Origin: a virus
Lineage: Duplodnaviria > Heunggongvirae > Uroviricota > Caudoviricetes
Virus record (IMG/VR): IMGVR_UViG_2896601577_000002
Strand: one strand, 5' to 3'
Length of the DNA: 33,080 nt
Numbering within the stretch: position 1 is the stretch's first letter; the number at the start of each line of letters is the position of its first letter. A program made the position numbers and the translations under genes. Below are positions 1 through 33,080 of this stretch, piece by piece. Below the pieces are notes generated by a model. That model worked only from the letters and a program-made list of their open reading frames with translations. It did not search any database and had not been told where the DNA came from.

Positions 1-495
1 TTACTGATAGTGTTTTATGTTCAGATAATGCCCGATGACCTTGTCATGCAGCTCCACCGATTTTGAGAACGACAGCGACTTCCGTCCCAGCCGTCCCAGC
101 CGTCCCAGCCGTCCCAGCCGTCCCAGCCGTCCCAGCCGTCCCAGCCGTCCCAGCCGTCCCAGCCGTCCCAGCCGTCCCAGCCGTCCCAGCCGTCCCAGCC
201 GTCCCAGCCGTGCCAGGTGCTGCCTCAGATTCAGGTTATGCCGCTCAATTCGCTGCGTATATCGCTTGCTGATTACGTGCAGCTTTCCCTTCAGGCGGGA
301 TTCATACAGTGGCCAGCCATCCGTCATCCATATCACCACGTCAAAGGGTGACAGCAAGCTCATAAGACGCCCCAGCGTCGCCATAGTGCGTTCACCGAAT
401 ACGTGCGCAACAACCGTCTTCCGGAGCCTGTCATACGCGTAAAACAGCCAGCGCTGGCGCGATTTAGCCCCGACGTATCCCCACTGTTCGTCCAT
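1..495 (-). CDS. insB: IS1 InsB transposase reading frame (made as InsAB' by -1 frameshift), carrying an in-frame (LGR)n insertion
   Basis: Translation matches IS1 InsB ([16 protein letters not shown]...HYLNIKHYQ) except for repeated LGR tripeptides; frame is open upstream to about 590. Confidence 0.85.
82..216. repeat. 9-bp tandem repeat, 14 perfect units CCGTCCCAG plus one variant CCGTGCCAG
   Basis: Counted directly: perfect units 82-207, variant 208-216. Confidence 0.95.
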
Positions 496-539
496 TTCCG
501 CGCAGACGATGACGTCACTGCCCGGCTGTATGCGCGAGG

Positions 540-815
540 TTACCGACTGCGGCCTGAGTTTTTTAAGTGACGTAAAATCGTGTTGAGGCTAACGCCCATA
601 ATGCGTGCAGTTGCCCGGCATCCAACGCCATTCATGGCCATATCAATAATTTTCTGGTACGTACCGGGTTGAGAGGCGGTGTAAGTGAACTGCAGTTGCC
701 ATGTTTTACGGCAGTGAGAGCAGAGATAGCGCTGATGTCCGGCAGTGCTTTTGCCGTTACGCACCACCCCGTCAGTAGCTGAACAGGAGGGACAGCTGAT
801 AGAAACAGAAGCCAC
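540..815 (-). CDS. insA: IS1 InsA
   Basis: 91-aa product [22 protein letters not shown]... matches IS1 InsA. Confidence 0.9.
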
Positions 816-889
816 TGGAGCACCTCAAAAACACCATCATACACTAAATCAGTAAGTTGGCAGCATCACCCAAATGCTTTATTCATTCT

Positions 890-1168
890 TTACTTCCTTT
901 TTATGGCTCGTAATTTTTTCAGGTGCTTTTCCTGCTCAGTGTCCGCGAGAATTTTGCGGTACTCCTGGTGGTCAATATGTTCGAACAGGCAGTTTAACTC
1001 ACCAATGCGTACCCGCCCGGATCGTCCGTCCATCCGTCGAAAGAACACTGAGTGCTCAGTGATGCGAGTAATCACCACGGGGTATCCAGCTCTGTCCGTG
1101 TATATCTGACCGCGTTGAATCAAAGCGAACATGTGGTTATCCCCATCGACAAATCGAGAACACAACAA
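890..1168 (-). CDS. hypothetical prophage protein (80-92 aa)
   Basis: ORF on the same strand as neighbouring early genes; no family recognised. Confidence 0.4.
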   Translation of the reverse strand: MLCSRFVDGDNHMFALIQRGQIYTDRAGYPVVITRITEHSVFFRRMDGRSGRVRIGELNCLFEHIDHQEYRKILADTEQEKHLKKLRAIKRK

Positions 1169-1216
1169 ACGCTGCTGCGAATACCACCCCCAGAGTTACG
1201 ATTGCATCAGGCCAGC

Positions 1217-2161
1217 TCATTGATTCACCTCCTGCCTGTCGTCCGGCATTCGCTCACTACAGCTTATCCAACCATCCGGAGTTACCGGAACTTGTGGAAT
1301 GGCTGTCTGCTCTCGAACGTCATTAGGCGCTATAGGTTCTGCTGCCAACTGACTGGCATATTTGTTAATGGTAACGATAAGCTCTTGCTCAGCCTCATCC
1401 AGACAATCACCGATACCTCGCCTGTCACCGTCAAAATCATCGAAATCGGCACGAATCCTGGCAACCTTCAGGATTGCGGACAACACCTCACTAGGAATTG
1501 CCGGATAGTTGGTTGACGTTTCCGCGATTTCCCGAAAATTATTGGTTGACGAATTCTTGTTTTCCCGAAAGTTTCCGGACTGAAGCATGGCGGCGCGGCA
1601 GGCGTTCCATATTTCGGCAGCAATATCGCGCTCGCTATCGGTTAATTTGTACGTTGAAACATAGCCAGAGAGCATTTCTACGTTTTCCGGAGTTGCTTCT
1701 TCAGGCACTACCGGTGCTGGCTCACGTATTACAGGCTCGCCCATGCGTGATTCTCCCTGCGCCTCTTTCACCATGTGGTCATTGATTTGCTCCAGTCGCC
1801 GAACGTGCTCATCAGCTTCAAGCGCTCGCCGTTTCCAGATGGACAGGTCTTCACGAGCGCCCTGATATGCGTCACCGTATTCGCCGTTAAATACTGGCGC
1901 TGGCGGGGCGATGCGTCCAAGCAACTTATTTACCTCTTTCGCCATCGCGTCATATTTATCTAAATAGCGATTAGCTTCTAAGCAGACTCGGTGCATCTGA
2001 TCTGAGTTAACTCGTTTAACTGGATCTGCTTCCAATGATGCCAGTGCAATCCGTGCCAGTTCTTCCGCTTCTTCTGCTGGCAGTACAACGTTGCTACCCG
2101 GTCCGTATGTTTCGCGCCACTGCTTGATTGTCAGCAGTCGCCCTTTGGTAATAGTGATCAT
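1217..2161 (-). CDS. hypothetical prophage early-region protein (314 aa)
   Basis: Long ORF with coherent codon usage; 4-bp overlap with the next gene. Confidence 0.6.
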   Translation of the reverse strand: MITITKGRLLTIKQWRETYGPGSNVVLPAEEAEELARIALASLEADPVKRVNSDQMHRVCLEANRYLDKYDAMAKEVNKLLGRIAPPAPVFNGEYGDAYQGAREDLSIWKRRALEADEHVRRLEQINDHMVKEAQGESRMGEPVIREPAPVVPEEATPENVEMLSGYVSTYKLTDSERDIAAEIWNACRAAMLQSGNFRENKNSSTNNFREIAETSTNYPAIPSEVLSAILKVARIRADFDDFDGDRRGIGDCLDEAEQELIVTINKYASQLAAEPIAPNDVREQTAIPQVPVTPDGWISCSERMPDDRQEVNQ

Positions 2162-2384
2162 GCCGCGTTTCCTTCTTTCTTATTAACAATCACACCGTCA
2201 TATATTTCATTAAGGTGCCCTCTCAACTCCATGCGCCTTAATGCAGATAACATGTAATCGCATTCAACCTGCTTATTCCCGGTAAATGGCTTATCGTCAG
2301 GATTACCCCAACAGCAATTACCCCTGGGCCATCCATGTACTTTCCGTACTCTTCCGTTAACAACGTGAAGTAATCCTGAAGTGG

Positions 2385-3553
<1,169 letters not shown>

Positions 3554-5998: not shown

Positions 5999-6556
5999 TC
6001 ATTTCGTTAATAATTTCATCCAGAAGGATTTCAAGCCCTTCTCGACCCATATCTGAAAGAATGAAACCTTTATCAGGGAAGTAGTGAGCATTTTCTGATA
6101 AAGAAACAGCGCTCTTCCCATTCCTTCAGCTTCGCCGTATTTTTGAATTAAATTCCATTCAATATACTGTTGTAAGGCAAATCGAATGGGGCCGGGATAT
6201 ATCGTCATAAACCCATACATCCCGTTATATACCACGGCGTGTTCAGTTGTTCCGTGTTCAGTTGTTCCGTGTTCATTCAGGATATCAATTGTGCCGTTCT
6301 TGTCTTCTTCTTCGTTGATGAATGTCGTCACATACAACCATCGCCACTGAGCAACCTTCATCTCAACCGGAAGTTTACCCAGTAATCCTGCTTCGTCGGC
6401 TTGCGCCAGACACTGAAGGATACGTAAACCTCGCACATTAGGAGTATCGAATTCTCCGGCATCCAGACGACGTATGGCGTCGTGATAATCAATCGTCATA
6501 CTGCCAGTTCGTATACCATTGGCTGTTGCTTCAGCCTGGAATTCATCGTATTGCAT
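5999..6556 (-). CDS. hypothetical prophage protein with internal 15-bp tandem duplication
   Basis: ORF; repeat 6241-6275 encodes EHGTTEHGTTEH. Confidence 0.5.
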   Translation of the reverse strand: MQYDEFQAEATANGIRTGSMTIDYHDAIRRLDAGEFDTPNVRGLRILQCLAQADEAGLLGKLPVEMKVAQWRWLYVTTFINEEEDKNGTIDILNEHGTTEHGTTEHAVVYNGMYGFMTIYPGPIRFALQQYIEWNLIQKYGEAEGMGRALFLYQKMLTTSLIKVSFFQIWVEKGLKSFWMKLLTK

Positions 6557-6561
6557 GATAT

Positions 6562-6762
6562 TTATTCCTCATCTTCATCTTCATCTTCATCTTCATCTGC
6601 TGGTGCAATAACGTCATATCCTGCCTTTTCTGCAATAAACAGGAATGTTGAAAGAGTTCCTACAAGTTCATCGTCATGAACATGGCGAATGAATATTACT
6701 TTCCCGTTTTTGATGGTCAGCAATATTCTGGTTTGTTCGTGTTCTGCTGTTTTCTGATGCAT
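6562..6762 (-). CDS. small acidic protein with (DE)n C-terminus
   Basis: ORF with GGGAGA SD; hexamer repeat 6569-6600. Confidence 0.45.
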   Translation of the reverse strand: MHQKTAEHEQTRILLTIKNGKVIFIRHVHDDELVGTLSTFLFIAEKAGYDVIAPADEDEDEDEDEE

Positions 6763-6936
6763 TATTATCTCCCGTATGCTTTACGCAGAAATAAGCAGGC
6801 AATATGCATGTAATTTTCACCGTATTGTGCAATAAGGCAGGCGGTTAGACTGGCCCCCTGAATCTCCAGACAACCAGTATCACTTAAATAAGTGATAGTC
6901 TTAATACTAGTTTTTAGACTAGTCATTGGAGTACAG

Positions 6937-7298
6937 ATGATTGATGTCTTAGGGCCGGAGAAACGCAGACGGCGTACCACACAGGAAAAGATCGCAATTG
7001 TTCAGCAGAGCTTTGAACCGGGGATGACGGTCTCCCTCGTTGCCCGGCAACATGGTGTAGCAGCCAGTTATTTCTCTGGCGTAAGCAATACCAGGAAGGA
7101 AGTCTTACTGCTGTGGCCGCCGGAGAACAGGTTGTTCCTGCCTCTGAACTTGCTGCCGCCATGAAGCAGATTAAAGAACTCCAGCGCCTGCTCGGCAAGA
7201 AAACGATGGAAAATGAACTCCTCAAAGAAGCCGTTGAATATGGACGGGCAAAAAAGTGGATAGCGCACGCGCCCTTATTGCCCGGGGATGGGGAGTAA
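6937..7298 (+). pseudogene. insC: IS2 insC (OrfA) with frameshift from a 4-bp deletion
   Basis: Product matches InsC up to ...QHGVAAS, then shifts frame; the native frame resumes at [14 protein letters not shown]... (7113-7298). Confidence 0.75.
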
Positions 7299-8161
7299 GC
7301 TTAGTCAGCCGTTGTCTCCGGGTGTCGCGTGCGCAGTTGCACGTCATTCTCAGACGAACCGATGACTGGATGGATGGCCGCCGCAGTCGTCACACTGATG
7401 ATACGGATGTGCTTCTCCGTATACACCATGTTATCGGAGAGCTGCCCACGTATGGTTATCGTCGGGTATGGGCGCTGCTTCGCAGACAGGCAGAACTTGA
7501 TGGTATGCCTGCGATCAATGCCAAACGTGTTTACCGGATCATGCGCCAGAATGCGCTGTTGCTTGAGCGAAAACCTGCTGTACCGCCATCGAAACGGGCA
7601 CATACAGGCAGAGTGGCCGTGAAAGAAAGCAATCAGCGATGGTACTCTGACGGGTTCGAGTTCTGCTGTGATAACGGAGAGAGACTGCGTGTCACGTTCG
7701 CGCTGGACTGCTGTGATCGTGAGGCACTGCACTGGGCGGTGACTACCGGCGGCTTCAACAGTGAAACAGTACAGGACGTCATGCTGGGAGCGGTGGAACG
7801 CCGCTTCGGCAACGATCTTCCGTCGTCTCCAGTGGAGTGGCTGACGGATAATGGTTCATGCTACCGGGCTAATGAAACACGCCAGTTCGCCCGGATGTTG
7901 GGACTTGAACCGAAGAACACGGCGGTGCGGAGTCCGGAGAGTAACGGAATAGCAGAGAGCTTCGTGAAAACGATAAAGCGTGACTACATCAGTATCATGC
8001 CCAAACCAGACGGGTTAACGGCAGCAAAGAACCTTGCAGAGGCGTTCGAGCATTATAACGAATGGCATCCGCATAGTGCGCTGGGTTATCGCTCGCCACG
8101 GGAATATCTGCGGCAGCGGGCTTGTAATGGGTTAAGTGATAACAGATGTCTGGAAATATAG
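7256..8161 (+). CDS. insD: IS2 InsD (OrfB transposase)
   Basis: 301-aa product matches IS2 InsD. Confidence 0.85.
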
Positions 8162-8288
8162 GGGCAAATCCAGCGGTCTTGTGTGATGCCATATTCTTTA
8201 TAAAAGTCACAATAAAGCCTCCTGCGGATTAAGGTTGTAACAATCCCCGGCGATAAAACCGCAATAAACGTTCAGGGCATATTTGTTG

Positions 8289-21077: not shown

Positions 21078-22391
21078 TTGGTTTCCTTGTTTATGCATTG
21101 CTGGTGATGTTCTGAAAAGTATAAATGATATTTTTGAATGTAAACCATAGAGCAGAATTATTTTTCTGATGTTGTTTATTGTTTATTTAAATGCAGGGTG
21201 GTTTATATCTCGTCTTGTAGTTTATCCATGCATATCTGCTTGATGATGAGGTTTTTATTTAAGGTATGGTTTTGTGTTTTTTCTGTATTACATGTCAGGT
21301 ATTTTAAAGAATCATTTTTCAGATGGTGGAAAGAACCATGGCATTTAAACACTATGATGTTGTCAGGGCGGCGTCGCCGTCAGATCTTGCGGAAAAGCTG
21401 ACACATAAACTGAAAGAGGGCTGGCAGCCGTTTGGTAGTCCGGTGGCCATAACCCCTTATACTCTGATGCAGGCGATTGCAGCAGAAGGTGCAGTAATCA
21501 GCGCCACCAGCAACCCGGAGTATTACTTTGTTGTGGTTCTGGCAGGGCAGTCAAACGGCATGTCGTATGGTGAAGGCCTTCCGCTGCCGGGGACATATGA
21601 CCGTCCGGACCCGCGTATTAAGCAACTGGCGCGTCGCAGTACGGTGACACCGGGCGGTGCAGCATGCAAATATAACGACATCATTCCGGCGGACCATTGT
21701 CTGCATGATGTGCAGGACATGAGCCGTCTTAACCATCCGAAAGCGGACCTGTCAAAGGGGCAGTACGGAACCGTGGGGCAGGGGCTGCATATCGCCAAAA
21801 AACTGCTGCCGTTTATACCGGCGAATGCGGGCATTCTGCTGGTTCCGTGCTGTCGTGGTGGTTCAGCGTTCACCACCGGAGCTGATGGCACATACAGTGA
21901 CGCGAGTGGTGCCTCGGAGAATTCAACCCGCTGGGGTGTGGACAAGCCGCTGTATAAGGACCTTATCGGTCGAACAAAAGCGGCACTGGAGAAGAACCCG
22001 AAAAATGTGCTGTTTGCCGTGGTGTGGATGCAGGGGGAATTTGATTTTGGCGGTACGCCGGCAAATCATGCCGCACAGTTTGGTGCGCTGGTTGATAAAT
22101 TCCGTGCAGACCTGGCGGATATGGCAGGCCAGTGCGTCGGTGGCTCTGCTGGCGGTGTTCCCTGGATATGCGGGGACACGACGTATTTCTGGAAGCAGAA
22201 GAACGAATCCACGTACCAGACGGTGTACGGCAGCTATAAAAATAAAACGGAAAAGAATATCCATTTCGTACCGTTCATGACCGATGAGAACGGGGTGAAT
22301 GTGCCGACGAACAAACCGGAAGAAGACCCGGACATTCTGAACCGCCCCGGGAATCCTGGAGACTAAACTTCCTGAGAAAGAGGTAAACAGG

Positions 22392-22718
22392 ATGACTAAA
22401 AATACTCGTTTTTCCCCCGAAGTCCGTCAACGGGCAGTCCGTATGGTTCTGGAAAGTCAGGGCGAATATGACTCACAATGGGCGACAATTTGTTCCATTG
22501 CTCCAAAGATTGGCTGTACGCCGGAGACTCTGCGTGTCTGGGTTCGCCAGCATGAGCGGGATACCGGGGGCGGTGATGGAGGGCTCACCACCGCTGAACG
22601 TCAGCGTCTGAAAGAGCTGGAGCGTGAAAATCGTGAACTGCGCCGCAGTAACGATATCCTTCGCCAGGCTTCCGCTTATTTTGCGAAGGCGGAGTTCGAC
22701 CGCCTCTGGAAAAAGTGA
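22392..22718 (+). CDS. IS629 OrfA
   Basis: 108-aa product [19 protein letters not shown]... Confidence 0.9.
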
Positions 22719-23605
22719 TGCCACTGCTGGATAAGCTGCGTAAGCTGTACGGGGTCGGACCGGTATGCAGTGAACTGCATATTGCCCCGTCAACGTATTA
22801 CCACTGTCAGCAACAGCGACATCATCCTGATAAACGCAGTGCCCGTGCGCAGCGCGATGACTGGCTGAAGAAAGAGATACTGCGCGTATACGATGGGAAT
22901 CATCAGGTATACGGTGTGCGTAAAGTCTGGCGTCAGTTGTTACGGGAAGGTATCAGAGTGGCCAGATGCACTGTGGCACGTCTCATGGCGGTTATGGGAC
23001 TTGCCGGTGTTCTCCGGGGTAAAAAGGTCCGTACGACCATCAGCCGGAAAGCCGTTGCCGCAGGCGACCGCGTAAACCGTCAGTTCGTGGCAGAACGACC
23101 TGACCAGCTGTGGGTAGCTGATTTTACTTACGTCAGCACATGGCAGGGCTTCGTCTATGTGGCGTTCATCATTGATGTGTTTGCCGGATACATTGTGGGG
23201 TGGCGGGTCTCATCGTCCATGGAGACGACATTCGTGCTGGATGCACTGGAGCAGGCGTTATGGGCCCGTCGACCGTCCGGCACGGTCCATCACAGTGATA
23301 AAGGTTCTCAGTATGTATCGCTGGCCTACACACAGCGGCTTAAGGAAGCCGGATTACTGGCATCAACAGGAAGTACAGGCGACTCGTATGACAACGCGAT
23401 GGCGGAGAGCATCAATGGTCTTTACAAAGCGGAGGTAATACACCGTAAGAGCTGGAAAAACCGTGCAGAAGTGGAACTGGCCACACTCACGTGGGTGGAC
23501 TGGTATAACAATCGACGATTGCTGGAAAGGCTGGGCCATACTCCTCCGGCAGAAGCAGAAAAAGCTTATTATGCTTCCATCGGAAACGATGATCTGGCAG
23601 CCTGA
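22715..23605 (+). CDS. IS629 OrfB transposase
   Basis: 296-aa IS3-family DDE transposase. Confidence 0.9.
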
Positions 23606-24655
23606 GTTCACAGATAAAACACTCTCCAGGAAACCCGGGGCGGTTCAATTCCGGGTATCGGTTATTACGGTTCGAAATGGCGTGACAGCTCAGCCACCTG
23701 GACGTCACAGGACAGGGCGAGCCATTTCAGTTCATGGGCTCGCCGTGGGATTATTTCCGACCGTCTGGCAACGGCGATTCTGAGCTGCGCGGGTAAGTCT
23801 TCTGCGTTTGTTAATGGTACTGCCGGGGTGGTTGTTCCAGACAGGCCGGTTACCACCTCAGAGTCTGTAATTTTTTACGATGCCAAAAAAGCTACAGACA
23901 ATCAGCTGAAACCTTATGGCTGGGACGGTATGTATGGCAGACGCACACTGGTTGATGACAGCGGCAATAAAGCTCTGCGAATTGAGAAAAATAACAGCGC
24001 GAAATCCTGGTCAATGTACTGTGATATTGCTGCAGACAAGGCAAAACTTTTACTGGAAAAAGGCGGGGAAATTGCTGTCCGGTTTAAAATCCCCGAAAAC
24101 GTCAATCTTGAGACAACCAGAAACAAGTATGCCTTTGGTTTGTACTGGCGAATAGCGGAATGGCCGGGTGAGGGTGGTGAAGGCCATCTGAGTTCTTTCT
24201 TTGTCCAGACAGATAAAGCCAGTATTAATGTTGCATACCATCATACAGTTAATCAACAAAAAGAACTTGGCACGTTTGGCGCATTCGACCATGACTGGCA
24301 TACGCTTGCATTTAAATTTAAGGGCAGTAACAGCATTAATGTTACTCCGGTGCTTGATGGTGTGGATGGACAGGCGTTTGACCTGGTGAAATGGGCCAAT
24401 ACTGCTAATGGACTCAACAGGTTTGTCATTACGGATATTACAGGTAGTGCAGAAACCTACCCTGTACTTATTGATACGGTGGAAGTTAAAGCAAACAAAG
24501 CTGGAGCAGCCGCATAATTGCTAAAAAAAGCCGCCAGCGGCAGGAATGGAAGCTGGCGGAGGTAATCCCAATGGAGAATGTAAAGAAAAGATGCTTTCGT
24601 ACATTGGTTTTTAAATGAAAACAATTCTCATTGTCAACCATAACGGTAAGAAATT

Positions 24656-27537: not shown

Positions 27538-27906
27538 GCGACCTTATTAACCATGCGCGGTATTGTCGCCGTATCCCCGCATTAACAGAGACCGCAGCCC
27601 GACCGGGAGACTCCTCTGCGCGAGTGTGCGGGGATAATCAAAAACGATACACACCGGGGTTTACCGCGTTAACGGAGCGCGGCGTTGTCCCCTCATGGTC
27701 GCTGGTCCGGTGCGATGGTGGAAGAAACCGGACGATGTGTTACCTCGCAAGCTCTGTTATGTCATGTGTCTGATTTGTGATTTAAGTCGGATAATTGTCG
27801 TTGCCATTAAGCAGAGGATTGATGACCGACAGGGTGGCATTGTTAGAATAAGTGAACCGCCCCGGGAATCCTGGAGACTAAACTTCCTGAGAAAGAGGTA
27901 AACAGG

Positions 27907-28233
27907 ATGACTAAAAATACTCGTTTTTCCCCCGAAGTCCGTCAACGGGCAGTCCGTATGGTTCTGGAAAGTCAGGGCGAATATGACTCACAATGGGCGA
28001 CAATTTGTTCCATTGCTCCAAAGATTGGCTGTACGCCGGAGACTCTGCGTGTCTGGGTTCGCCAGCATGAGCGGGATACCGGGGGCGGTGATGGAGGGCT
28101 CACCACCGCTGAACGTCAGCGTCTGAAAGAGCTGGAGCGTGAAAATCGTGAACTGCGCCGCAGTAACGATATCCTTCGCCAGGCTTCCGCTTATTTTGCG
28201 AAGGCGGAGTTCGACCGCCTCTGGAAAAAGTGA
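27907..28233 (+). CDS. IS629 OrfA
   Basis: Identical product to copy 1. Confidence 0.9.
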
Positions 28234-29120
28234 TGCCACTGCTGGATAAGCTGCGTAAGCTGTACGGGGTCGGACCGGTATGCAGTGAACTGCATATTGC
28301 CCCGTCAACGTATTACCACTGTCAGCAACAGCGACATCATCCTGATAAACGCAGTGCCCGTGCGCAGCGCGATGACTGGCTGAAGAAAGAGATACTGCGC
28401 GTATACGATGGGAATCATCAGGTATACGGTGTGCGTAAAGTCTGGCGTCAGTTGTTACGGGAAGGTATCAGAGTGGCCAGATGCACTGTGGCACGTCTCA
28501 TGGCGGTTATGGGACTTGCCGGTGTTCTCCGGGGTAAAAAGGTCCGTACGACCATCAGCCGGAAAGCCGTTGCCGCAGGCGACCGCGTAAACCGTCAGTT
28601 CGTGGCAGAACGACCTGACCAGCTGTGGGTGGCTGATTTTACTTACGTCAGCACATGGCAGGGCTTCGTCTATGTGGCGTTCATCATTGATGTGTTTGCC
28701 GGATACATCGTGGGGTGGCGGGTCTCATCGTCCATGGAAACGACATTCGTGCTGGATGCTCTGGAGCAGGCGTTATGGGCCCGTCGACCGTCCGGCACGG
28801 TCCATCACAGTGATAAAGGTTCTCAGTATGTATCGCTGGCCTACACACAGCGGCTTAAGGAAGCCGGATTACTGGCATCAACAGGAAGTACAGGCGACTC
28901 GTATGACAACGCGATGGCGGAGAGCATCAATGGTCTTTACAAAGCGGAGGTAATACACCGTAAGAGCTGGAAAAACCGTGCAGAAGTGGAACTGGCCACA
29001 CTCACGTGGGTGGACTGGTATAACAATCGACGATTGCTGGAAAGGCTGGGCCATACTCCTCCGGCAGAAGCAGAAAAAGCTTATTATGCTTCCATCGGAA
29101 ACGATGATCTGGCAGCCTGA
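28230..29120 (+). CDS. IS629 OrfB transposase
   Basis: Identical product to copy 1. Confidence 0.9.
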
Positions 29121-29188
29121 GTTCACAGATAAAACACTCTCCAGGAAACCCGGGGCGGTTCAAAGACTTATTCTTATCTGTGCCGGGA

Positions 29189-29899: not shown

Positions 29900-31420
29900 G
29901 CTTTTACGTTAATTTGATGCAGATCAATCAATACGATAGTAAGGCAGTATGACTTTCCGTGAGACAGATGCTGGCCAACGTGGGATATTTAACGCGGGTT
30001 AACATCGTTGTCAGAGCCGCATGGGTGAGCTGTTGCTACACCCCGGTATTTCCACCACGGAGGCCAGCATGAACAACAATAACACATTGTACGTCGGGTT
30101 AGATGTTCACAAAGAATCGATTACTGTCGCTTATGCTATCAATTCAGAACCTGTTGAACTGATGGGTAAAATTGGCACATCACCTACTGATATTCAGAAT
30201 CTTTGTAAACGTCTCAGGTCAAAGTCATCGCAGGTCAGTATCGTTTATGAAGCGGGGCCCTGTGGTTATGGACTTTATCGTCGGCTGGTGAAATCCGGTT
30301 TTGACTGCATGGTCTGCGCCCCCTCACTTATCCCGAAAAAACCGGGGGAGCGGGTTAAAACCGATCGCCGTGATGCCATCAGACTTGTGCGTTCACTGCG
30401 TGCAGGAGATCTTTCTGCTGTCTACGTACCCGGCATTGAAGATGAGGCATTCCGGGATTTGGCCCGGGCATGGGCATCTGCCCGCGATGATTTACGGCAT
30501 GCAAGGCAACGTCTGAAATCGTTTCTTCTGGTTCATGGGGTCCATTATGTCGGGCGAGCAGATTGGGGCCCTGCACACCGACGCTGGCTCAGCAAATACT
30601 CATTCGAAAGTCCCTGGCGACAATTAGCTTTTGACGAACACCGTCGTACAATAGAAGACCGGCAGGCACAATGTGAACGGCTGGAATCCGCCCTGAAGGA
30701 GGCCGTTACCGAATGGAGGCTGTATCCGGTAGTAGAGGCGCTGCAAGCCATGCGAGGGATTCAGTTTATTACTGCGGTTGGATTAATTTCTGAACTGGGT
30801 GATCTGACCCGTTTTGAACATCCACGACAACTGATGTCATGGTTTGGTATCACGCCATCAGAATATTCATCGGGTGGAAGCAGACATCAGGGCAGCATTA
30901 CCAAAGCCGGAAACAGCTATGCCAGAAAGCTATTGGTCGAGGCAGCGTGGAGTTACCGTCATCCGGCACGCATCAGTCCGGCAATACAAAAAAGGCAGGA
31001 AAATTTACCCCGCCCCGTCATTGACAGAGCATGGGATGCTCAACTCAGGCTTTGTAAGAGGTATCGAAAACTTCAGGCCAAAGGAAAGAATGTCAATATT
31101 ACAATTGTTGCTGTTGCACGTGAGCTGGCGGGTTTTATCTGGGATATGGGCCGAATAGCAATGTCTGTCGCACAACAACCACAATGTCACAAATAAAAAT
31201 GAGAATAACCAGTTCCCTGAAGGCGACGTAGCCCGGTACAAGAGTAACCCACGTTAGCGCTTGGCGACGGCGGAACAAAGCTGATTCGCGACGTAAGAAA
31301 GTGGCAGGCTCATATGACGGACCTCTGTAATGCGGTATCCAACCCGCGAATATCAGCGTGATTCACCGTCGGATTTACTGCTACGTCGCCCTCAGGGAAT
31401 TAAACCTAAAAAGAAAATCG
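29900..31420 (+). mobile_element. IS110-family insertion sequence; boundaries cannot be set from sequence alone
   Basis: DEDD-type transposase gene; this family lacks conventional terminal IRs and TSDs. Confidence 0.3.
30069..31196 (+). CDS. IS110-family (DEDD) transposase
   Basis: N-terminal YVGLDVHKESITVAY and KTDRRDA motifs; C-terminal Transposase_20-like region; SD GGAGG. Confidence 0.85.
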   Translation: MNNNNTLYVGLDVHKESITVAYAINSEPVELMGKIGTSPTDIQNLCKRLRSKSSQVSIVYEAGPCGYGLYRRLVKSGFDCMVCAPSLIPKKPGERVKTDRRDAIRLVRSLRAGDLSAVYVPGIEDEAFRDLARAWASARDDLRHARQRLKSFLLVHGVHYVGRADWGPAHRRWLSKYSFESPWRQLAFDEHRRTIEDRQAQCERLESALKEAVTEWRLYPVVEALQAMRGIQFITAVGLISELGDLTRFEHPRQLMSWFGITPSEYSSGGSRHQGSITKAGNSYARKLLVEAAWSYRHPARISPAIQKRQENLPRPVIDRAWDAQLRLCKRYRKLQAKGKNVNITIVAVARELAGFIWDMGRIAMSVAQQPQCHK

Positions 31421-31439: not shown

Positions 31440-33080
31440 TTTGACACGGAAAGTCATATCAGCGTCAACGGAGCACCGTATTGACGCTTATTTATTGGTG
31501 AGTGCTACGTTCCATGGCAGGAGTTCGTCAACACGGTTGGAAGGCCATTCCGGCAGTACGCTCAGGATATAGCGCAGATACGCTTCCGGATCGATACCGT
31601 TCAGTCGGCAGGTGCCGATCAGCCCGTACAGTAGCGCACCACGCTCTCCACCGTGATCGCTGCCGAAGAACATAAAGTTTTTCTTTCCGAGACAGACTGC
31701 ACGAAGCGCTCTTTCCGCGGCATTATTATCCGCCTCAGCCAGACCATCATCACTGAAGTTGCACAACGCAACCCAGTGCTTCCTGATATACCGGAACGCA
31801 TCTCTCAGACGGCATTTTTTCGATAACGTGTGTTCTTTCTCCTGCATCAGCTTATACAGGGAAGTCAGTAGCGGTTTACTCTGCATTTGCCTGACCGCCA
31901 GGCGTTCAGACACCGGCAACCCGCGTATTTCGTGCTCGATGGCGTACAGCTCACCGATTAGTTTCAGGGCTTCTTCCGCTGTCGCGCTTTTGGTACTGAT
32001 ATATACATCGTGGACTTTGCGCCGCGCATGAGCCCAGCATCCTGCTTCCGTCAACGCGCCGCCTTCTCGTTCGGCACTGAACAGCCGATCGTAACCATTA
32101 AACGCATCTGCCTGCAGGATACCCCGGAAGGGACTAAGGTGCTGCTCCGGATGTTTACCCTGATGGTCCGGTGAGTAGGCGAACCAGACCGCCGGAGGCT
32201 CTGGCGAACCGGCATTCCTGTCATCCCGGACATACGTCCAGATATATCCTGTTTTCGCCTTCTTCCTGCCCGGTGCCAGCACTTTTACTGGTGTGTCATC
32301 AGTGTGAACTTTGCGGCTGTTCATCACATAACGGTACAGAGCATCATTCAGCGGCGTCATTAACTGGCAGCACGCGTCAACCCAGTTGGAGAGTAATGCA
32401 CGGCTCAGTTCGACACCCTGACGGGCAAAAATTTCACTCTGACGATACAGTGGCAGGTGTTCGCAGTATTTTCCCGTTAACACGCGGGCAAGTAACCCCG
32501 GGCCCGCGATACCACGCTCTATCGGACGGGATGGTGCCGGTGCTTCAACGATGCAGTCACATTTTGTACAGGCTTTTTTTACCCGTTCTGTGCGGATCAC
32601 TTTCAGAGCGCTGCTCACCAGTTCCAGTTGTTCTGCGCTGACTTCCCCCAGATAATCCAGCTCACCGCCACACTCCGGGCAACAGCTTTCTTCTGGCTCC
32701 AGGCGATTTATTTCGCGGGGCAGATGCTCCGGTAACGGGCGACGATGACGAGACTGTCGCAACTGGCGGGGAACCTGCGGATCGTCTTCCCGCCCACTGT
32801 AACGATCACTGTCCTGTTCGCGTTGTTTCAGCAGGGCCTCAGCCTGTTCAACTTCACGACGCAGTTTTTCAGAACGGGTACCGAACAGCATCCGGCGCAG
32901 TTTTTCTATCTGAGCCCGCAGATGTTCTATTTCCCGTTCATCTTCTTCGATCTTTTCTTCGGCGCGGGCCAGTGCAGAGCGCAGGAAGGCCTCCGTCTCT
33001 TCAACCAGACTCAGTTGCTGGTCTTTCTGACGGAGCTGGCATTCCAGTTCTGCAATGCGAATGAGGTATTTTTGATTCAT
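31440..33080 (-). mobile_element. IS66-family element, partial (tnpC end; remainder beyond the right edge)
   Basis: TnpC-like gene followed by an IR-like palindromic sequence TAAGCGTCAATACGGTGCTCCGTTGACGC. Confidence 0.5.
31488..33080 (-). CDS. tnpC: IS66-family transposase TnpC
   Basis: 530-aa product with N-terminal coiled coil, Cys cluster CPECGG...CTKCDC and IS66 TnpC-like core; ATG sits exactly at the window edge. Confidence 0.85.
   Translation of the reverse strand: MNQKYLIRIAELECQLRQKDQQLSLVEETEAFLRSALARAEEKIEEDEREIEHLRAQIEKLRRMLFGTRSEKLRREVEQAEALLKQREQDSDRYSGREDDPQVPRQLRQSRHRRPLPEHLPREINRLEPEESCCPECGGELDYLGEVSAEQLELVSSALKVIRTERVKKACTKCDCIVEAPAPSRPIERGIAGPGLLARVLTGKYCEHLPLYRQSEIFARQGVELSRALLSNWVDACCQLMTPLNDALYRYVMNSRKVHTDDTPVKVLAPGRKKAKTGYIWTYVRDDRNAGSPEPPAVWFAYSPDHQGKHPEQHLSPFRGILQADAFNGYDRLFSAEREGGALTEAGCWAHARRKVHDVYISTKSATAEEALKLIGELYAIEHEIRGLPVSERLAVRQMQSKPLLTSLYKLMQEKEHTLSKKCRLRDAFRYIRKHWVALCNFSDDGLAEADNNAAERALRAVCLGKKNFMFFGSDHGGERGALLYGLIGTCRLNGIDPEAYLRYILSVLPEWPSNRVDELLPWNVALTNK

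Follow-up and report, generated by a model that had tools for sequence, protein, structure and literature searches.

The insertion sequence IS2 of the IS3 family (IS2 group), known from the insC/insD copies of E. coli K-12 and from Shigella plasmids, has a length of 1331 bp and is characterised by imperfect terminal inverted repeats of about 41-42 bp, a 5-bp target duplication, an orfA/orfB layout with the A6G motif and the catalytic residues D240, D306 and E342. The first published IS2 sequence reportedly comprised 1327 bp, a figure that was afterwards revised to 1331 bp. Further IS2 copies of 1327 bp with the annotation 'frameshifted' (O157:H7 PV15-279, 2013C-3492, RM10410, pBS512_211, CP026871.1 and PTES01000002.1) share a 4-bp loss and the same or nearly the same 75-aa InsC' product, and non-autonomous IS derivatives combine intact ends with an inactivated transposase gene and are mobilised in trans. 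The IS2 copy described here is the only one in the window, i.e. the whole 33,080-nt stretch of DNA that was analysed, and it resembles the 1331-bp IS2 in all features listed above except its length, but differs from it by a missing CAGC unit, a broken orfA and a private C238Y change. It carries the same 4-bp loss as the other 1327-bp copies and can be aligned to them without gaps and with 1-34 mismatches, whereas these copies occupy other sites with other duplications and SNP backgrounds, and none of them has an A at position 7644. It likewise resembles the non-autonomous derivatives in its intact ends, its apparent lack of an own transposase route and its many sister sites, but the window copy is full-length, being neither internally deleted nor miniature, and its deletion most likely postdates its insertion at the present site.

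The window element starts with TAGACTGG... (also written TAGACTGGCCCCC) and ends with ...CAAATCCA (also written GGGGCAAATCCA); the coordinates of its features are compiled in Table 1. In a set of 5,426 complete E. coli genomes, it matched thousands of copies annotated as 'IS3-like element IS2 family transposase', and most full-length matches, among the matches listed, were 1331 bp in length with 99.5-99.6% identity. The identity to annotated IS2 (99.6% over 1327/1331 bp) is well within the threshold of >95% for this element. When the first 45 nt are aligned with the last 45 nt in reverse complement, they match over about 42 nt with a single indel. Both ends agree exactly with those found in an intact copy, and the left terminal repeat shows no differences from that of copy b of plasmid p83-578. 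The element is flanked by GCGGT on both sides, and the DDE triad D240, D306 and E342 resides in an integrase core of the rve type (Pfam rve and rve_3). An orfA joined to orfB in the -1 frame at the A6G motif, as is typical of IS2, is absent, since orfA is frameshifted after codon 44. By descent the window element belongs to IS2, as a defective member that departs from the definition of IS2 only in its lack of an intact orfA.

Table 1. Features of the IS2 insertion in the window (positions refer to the 33,080-nt stretch).
Feature	Position	Strand	Basis
Left target-site duplication copy GCGGT	6841..6845	.	Sequence; empty site with single GCGGT
IS2 element, 1327 bp (canonical 1331 bp)	6846..8172	+	99.6% identity to 1331-bp annotated copies
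IRL, left terminal inverted repeat	6846..6887	+	Alignment of both ends; sequence as in intact 1331-bp copy
Truncated insC' ORF, 75 aa (44 native and 31 out-of-frame residues)	6937..7164	+	TGA 7162-7164
Deletion junction; CAGCCAG left at 7061-7067, CAGCCAGCCAG in the intact element	7060..7068	+	Alignments
Stranded C-terminal part of native orfA, frame 0, leucine-zipper-like region	7161..7298	+	No Pfam hit
A6G (AAAAAAG) programmed -1 frameshift motif, intact	7250..7256	+	Sequence
insD (orfB), intact 301-aa ORF, DDE D240/D306/E342 (OrfAB numbering)	7256..8161	+	Pfam rve, rve_3, HTH_21; residue check
IRR, right terminal inverted repeat	8132..8172	+	Alignment of both ends
Right target-site duplication copy GCGGT	8173..8177	.	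Sequence

The original prediction had held that this IS2 measures 1327 bp instead of 1331 bp owing to a 4-bp deletion, and it had called for an alignment to the reference and to other IS2 copies. The measured interval (6846-8172) and the alignments bear out these claims: the 1331-bp form predominates among the E. coli copies listed, and the alignment with a 1331-bp S. boydii plasmid copy contains a single indel, at which the intact element reads GTAGCAGCCAGCCAGTT and the window copy GTAGCAGCCAGTT. The respective tract is GTAG-CAGC-CAGC-CAG-TT in the intact element and GTAG-CAGC-CAG-TT in the window, and the window copy is missing one CAGC unit of G(CAGC)(CAGC)CAG, with any exact position within the repeat being equivalent. 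The deletion falls in codons 44-45 of insC. The frequency of both states was deduced with a 71-nt query centred on the deletion junction, for which the 90-95% identity band represents the intact state with a 4-nt gap (94.7% identity over a 75-base span for all members of the band among the matches listed). This band held the best junction match in 4408 of the 4561 IS2-bearing E. coli records and included 1638 of 1665 plasmid records; a near-identical IS2 with an ungapped junction match was present in 11 of the 4561 E. coli records. The dominance of the 90-95% band in E. coli and plasmids indicates that the longer form is the reference state and that the window copy truly lacks 4 bp. An exact pattern of the junction yielded no matches in a genome contig collection that lacks the source genome, a result that is uninformative.

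The insC start codon ATG at 6937 lies in frame 1, the downstream native orfA codons in frame 0 and the insD start codon GTG at 7256 in frame 2. The deduced insC' product of 75 aa (MIDV...QHGVAAS, followed by foreign sequence) retains 44 native residues; the frame changes after Ser44, all residues from 45 onward are replaced, and the shifted frame ends at TGA 7162-7164, which is 86 nt short of the A6G slip site at 7250-7256. The divergence of InsC after ...QHGVAAS, the new stop at 7164 and a reading frame matching neither orfA nor orfB had all been foreseen and were recovered exactly. Half of the HTH domain, including the recognition helix 3, is gone from the insC' product, and the Pfam HTH_Tnp_1 profile is covered at positions 2-38 of 75 by the truncated product, compared with 2-74 by native InsC. 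The binding domain of InsC contains helices at residues 13-26, 32-38 and 43-58 (helix 3) (Lewis et al. 2011, PMC3219604). According to the same study, binding is lost in the R50H and L58I mutants, with transposition being absent in R50H and almost absent in L58I, and W49R loses transposition only; a leucine-zipper-like region at residues 70-103 is also required, and the role of the A6G slip motif is described there as well (PMC3219604). Since the frameshift takes effect from residue 45, the stop precedes A6G and these published mutants are defective, OrfA and OrfAB should both be lost from the window copy, and the corresponding part of the original prediction was a sound deduction. The ends, the A6G motif and the 301-aa orfB remain as in an active IS2, and it is reasonable to regard the window copy as probably immobile unless OrfAB complements it in trans; a text search of PMC3219604 for trans-complementation gave false matches only. 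Self-rescue by a compensating -1 frameshift was also considered and rejected, as no heptamer resembling X XXY YYZ was seen by eye between 7066 and 7164.

A G-to-A exchange at position 7644 (codon 7643-7645) in insD results in the amino acid change C238Y, which is private to the window copy: the A in this column is unique among 20 compared IS2 copies, and within the whole gene-position index the exact InsD sequence is confined to one contig, the source chromosome CP026867.1. The affected residue is located between W237 and the catalytic D240, and the W237R exchange beside D240 is a transposition-null mutant (PMC3219604). C238Y represents a second lesion and shows that the decay of the window copy is ongoing.

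When the flanks of the element were joined with a single GCGGT, an uninterrupted sequence was obtained that 121 E. coli chromosomes contain at about 99% identity, and a 60-nt empty-site junction matched exactly in an E. coli prophage (L005). The empty site belongs to a lambdoid prophage adjoining yecE and is positioned between two small leftward early-region genes. The single GCGGT of the empty site, together with the two copies at 6841-6845 and 8173-8177, confirms the anticipated simple insertion with a GCGGT duplication, which is placed in an intergenic spot of the early-left region of the lambdoid prophage. A left-junction query of the complete E. coli genomes, a collection without the source genome, detected no records with IS2 at the GCGGT site.

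The history of this site was deduced from two other genomes, CP026762.1 and the IMG/VR contig L036. The sister chromosome CP026762.1 (L030) was found via a look-up of the neighbouring 121-aa prophage protein; the neighbouring 185-aa protein, also searched to find close relatives, had a match in the source genome alone. The source genome is presumably Shigella, to judge from its accession batch and from plasmid CP026763.1 of the sister assembly, which bears an S. boydii label. CP026762.1 contains the same prophage, in which an equally oriented IS2 occupies the identical position between the same flanks, TGTGCAATAAGGCAGGCGGT and GCGGTCTTGTG, and with the same GCGGT duplication, yet this copy comprises 1331 bp, reads GCAGCCAGCCAG and has a called InsC of 121 aa. 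The contig L036 shows the same left junction and the intact GCAGCCAGCCAG, although it ends 402 bp into IS2 and could represent a collapsed repeat consensus. The identity of site, flanks and orientation in the sister genome argues for an insertion that is common by descent, and the intact state of the orthologous copy indicates that the deletion in the window copy most likely postdates the insertion. The window and CP026762.1 differ by 4 SNPs within the 1.3-kb IS2 compared with 3 mismatches in about 5.4 kb of flanks, and this higher divergence of IS2 hints at an exchange with other IS2 copies.

The overall explanation that we regard as highly probable is that an intact 1331-bp IS2 was inserted and subsequently lost a CAGC unit in place. 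An autonomous full-length IS2 would have inserted in the early-left region of the lambdoid prophage under duplication of GCGGT, and later, in the lineage of CP026867.1, one CAGC unit would have been lost from the tract encoding the start of helix 3. The loss might have occurred by replication slippage or through gene conversion by an already deleted IS2 copy; donor and recipient haplotypes are identical around the tract, and both routes fit. Translation would end after 75 codons, so that helix 3 and the leucine-zipper-like region would be missing and A6G would not be reached, and the OrfA regulator and the OrfAB transposase would not be made from this copy. The intact ends, slip site and orfB suggest that the resulting non-autonomous copy would be movable only with OrfAB from another IS2.

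The same allele was found elsewhere. The exact 75-aa product is encoded on 119 contigs and belongs to a 90% cluster of 73 members in the protein collection, with Shigella flexneri 2457T, S. sonnei, E. coli and Klebsiella pneumoniae among the source names. Ten places encoding the 75-aa product were read, and all of them are of the 1327 type and nearly all align ungapped to the window copy, the exceptions being one copy without a base and one split by IS1. Altogether, the deleted allele is present at at least 10 sites with their own 5-bp duplications, which are perfect at most sites (GATCT, GTACC, ATTAT, ATGAG, CTACC, GGTTG and CTGAC), and on at least 5 IS2 sequence backgrounds. The chromosome CP026871.1 contributes 5 sites of deleted IS2 with the common haplotype T42/T43/C697. 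The copies in L018, L009 and L037, at other sites, equal the window copy minus its private SNP, with L009 also lacking the base at column 9. An E. coli O157:H7 copy with the deletion occupies an nleG site with the duplication GGAGG, the same loss is found on other E. coli backbones of the 2013C-3492 and 90-3040 type, and two further E. coli backbone types with the loss are 32-34 SNPs away from the window copy. IS2-like remnants with about 90-92% identity also lack the CAGC unit. Among the S. boydii plasmids, pBS512_211 and p83-578 share one IS2 copy of 1327 bp, and their orthologous copy b comprises 1327 bp in pBS512_211 (L001:10967-12293) but 1331 bp in p83-578 (L002:10966-12296). RefSeq labels sister 1327-bp copies in unrelated assemblies as 'frameshifted'. 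The many backgrounds and the two orthologous pairs differing in state argue for recurrent slippage and/or gene conversion, and these sequence comparisons point to an allele that is widespread rather than a one-off event. This spread might have been enhanced by trans-mobilisation of deleted copies, but the data do not require it: the occupation of at least 10 sites can be explained by in-place change at orthologous loci, of which two were seen, without transposition of the deleted form. A post-insertion deletion, the recurrence of the allele and the private C238Y change extend the original prediction.

Further observations were made on these copies. The site of copy b has the same flanks in both S. 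boydii plasmids and no duplication. In pBS512_211, the SNPs at columns 797 and 874 are seemingly swapped between two IS2 copies 5 kb apart, which looks like gene conversion between the copies. A 1327-type IS2 interrupted by IS1 (L011:2911-5012, PTES01000002.1) indicates that deleted copies survive for a time sufficient to be hit by other IS elements. An internally deleted IS2-like remnant in E. coli SMS-3-5 (L006:2317-3191) and in pZ1323HEC0423-2 (L007:2317-3237), with about 87-92% identity over its main blocks and near 81% in one short block, is also missing the CAGC unit and bears the annotation 'transposase; frameshifted'. On the basis of two records that were read, remnants of this type appear to account for the majority of the 143 E. 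coli records whose junction match falls in the 95-99% band.

A different order of events would be that the copy was already deleted at insertion, so that a 1327-bp IS2 was mobilised in trans and the intact state of the sister copy is due to later repair by conversion. This scenario could draw on the many separate deleted sites with their own 5-bp duplications, on the rare haplotype T42/T43/C697 at the 5 sites of CP026871.1 and on the copies in L018, L009 and L037 that match the window copy save for its private SNP (and column 9 in L009). The intact H0 haplotype is common, however, and several 1331-bp copies are separated from the window copy by a single SNP, so that haplotype sharing provides no proof of a deleted master copy; moreover, two other genomes are intact at the very same GCGGT site, and the plasmid orthologues in pBS512_211 and p83-578 demonstrate that an allele change in place is possible. 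Insertion of a deleted copy is therefore considered unlikely. Much less probable still is a sequencing or assembly artefact of the record, even though IS repeats are prone to assembler collapse or mis-polishing, since the tract is not a homopolymer and the same allele recurs in many independent assemblies, including the complete plasmids of S. boydii CDC 3083-94, several E. coli chromosomes and proteins of S. flexneri 2457T. In addition, p83-578 holds intact and deleted copies together, which a systematic error would not produce.

The deletion also creates an ATGA overlap (ATG 7161-7163, TGA 7162-7164) that returns translation to the native orfA frame, and re-initiation at this ATG would give an N-terminally truncated OrfA or, after the A6G slip, a truncated OrfAB without the DNA-binding domain but with the leucine-zipper-like region (70-103) and the catalytic core retained according to the published domain map (PMC3219604); such proteins could poison or modulate the wild-type transposase. 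The overlap is an automatic consequence of the shifted frame in combination with the native AAM codons and bears no sign of selection, the 45-aa C-terminal OrfA product has no domain hit in Pfam, and C238Y adjoins the catalytic Asp. A functional role of re-initiation is thus the least credible of these alternatives, with hardly any probability left to it, and the ATGA, a configuration known from termination-reinitiation coupling, is probably a chance by-product of the frameshift.

In-place loss of the CAGC unit from an intact element accordingly remains the preferred reading, and the window copy is a case of ordinary IS decay in a decaying, IS-riddled prophage that carries an allele already flagged by RefSeq. 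Genomes of the Shigella type routinely contain frameshifted IS copies, and the 1327-bp allele is already flagged by annotation pipelines. In practical terms, the window IS2 calls for annotation as a pseudogene or as a non-autonomous element, and a single recurrent 4-bp loss underlies the 75-aa 'transposase' calls that are scattered through the databases. Orthologous copies, when compared, furthermore illustrate cleanly how IS copies decay after insertion or undergo gene conversion. Proof that the deleted form is mobilised in trans would make it a natural full-length non-autonomous IS lineage with relevance to IS population dynamics. A more speculative idea, to which we assign a low probability, is that the CAGC-CAGC tract acts as a switch prone to slippage or conversion, turning autonomous into non-autonomous copies and perhaps back, with the 'off' copies perhaps being amplified in trans in IS-rich genomes such as Shigella. 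A slipped-strand contingency (phase-variable) repeat would have to change its unit number often and reversibly within a coding region; the present tract comprises only 2.75 CAGC units, both orthologous pairs compared, two in number, differ in state, and a near-identical IS2 with the loss is limited to 11 of the 4561 IS2-bearing E. coli records. If the tract acted as such a switch, the 1327-bp form would represent a parasitic IS2 sub-family and not a set of dead copies. Literature searches yielded no paper describing a 1327-bp or non-autonomous IS2 variant.

The prophage surrounding the element contains additional variable and damaged regions. Just to the left of IS2, an in-frame tandem repeat with a 15-bp unit in 2.5 copies (6238-6275) is part of the 185-aa ORF, and an in-frame (TCATCT)x5 tract (6569-6598) encodes a Glu/Asp run in a 66-aa ORF. 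The orthologues of these ORFs have lengths of 179, 193 and 198 aa and of 62, 64, 66 and 68 aa, respectively, and these differences indicate that both tracts vary in copy number between strains. The gene encoding a replicative helicase of the DnaB type is split (14628-15506 and 15538-16029, covering profile positions 5-289 and 306-425), whereas it is intact as a single gene of 1401 nt in the related E. coli prophage L005; the DUF968 gene beside it is split as well (16336-17163 and 17164-17325). The window prophage is degraded.

Several other IS elements were detected in the window. Two direct copies of a 1311-bp IS3-family element (22338-23648 and 27853-29163) share 99.7% mutual identity, each contain a 296-aa ORF of the orfB type and are separated by about 4.2 kb, so that the pair could behave as a composite unit. 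The window moreover includes an IS1 fragment with InsA only (540-815), an IS3-family orfA/orfB pair (2385-3553), an IS110-family transposase (30021-31196) and an IS66-family transposase that reaches the window edge (31488-33080). The IS density of the window is typical of Shigella-type genomes.
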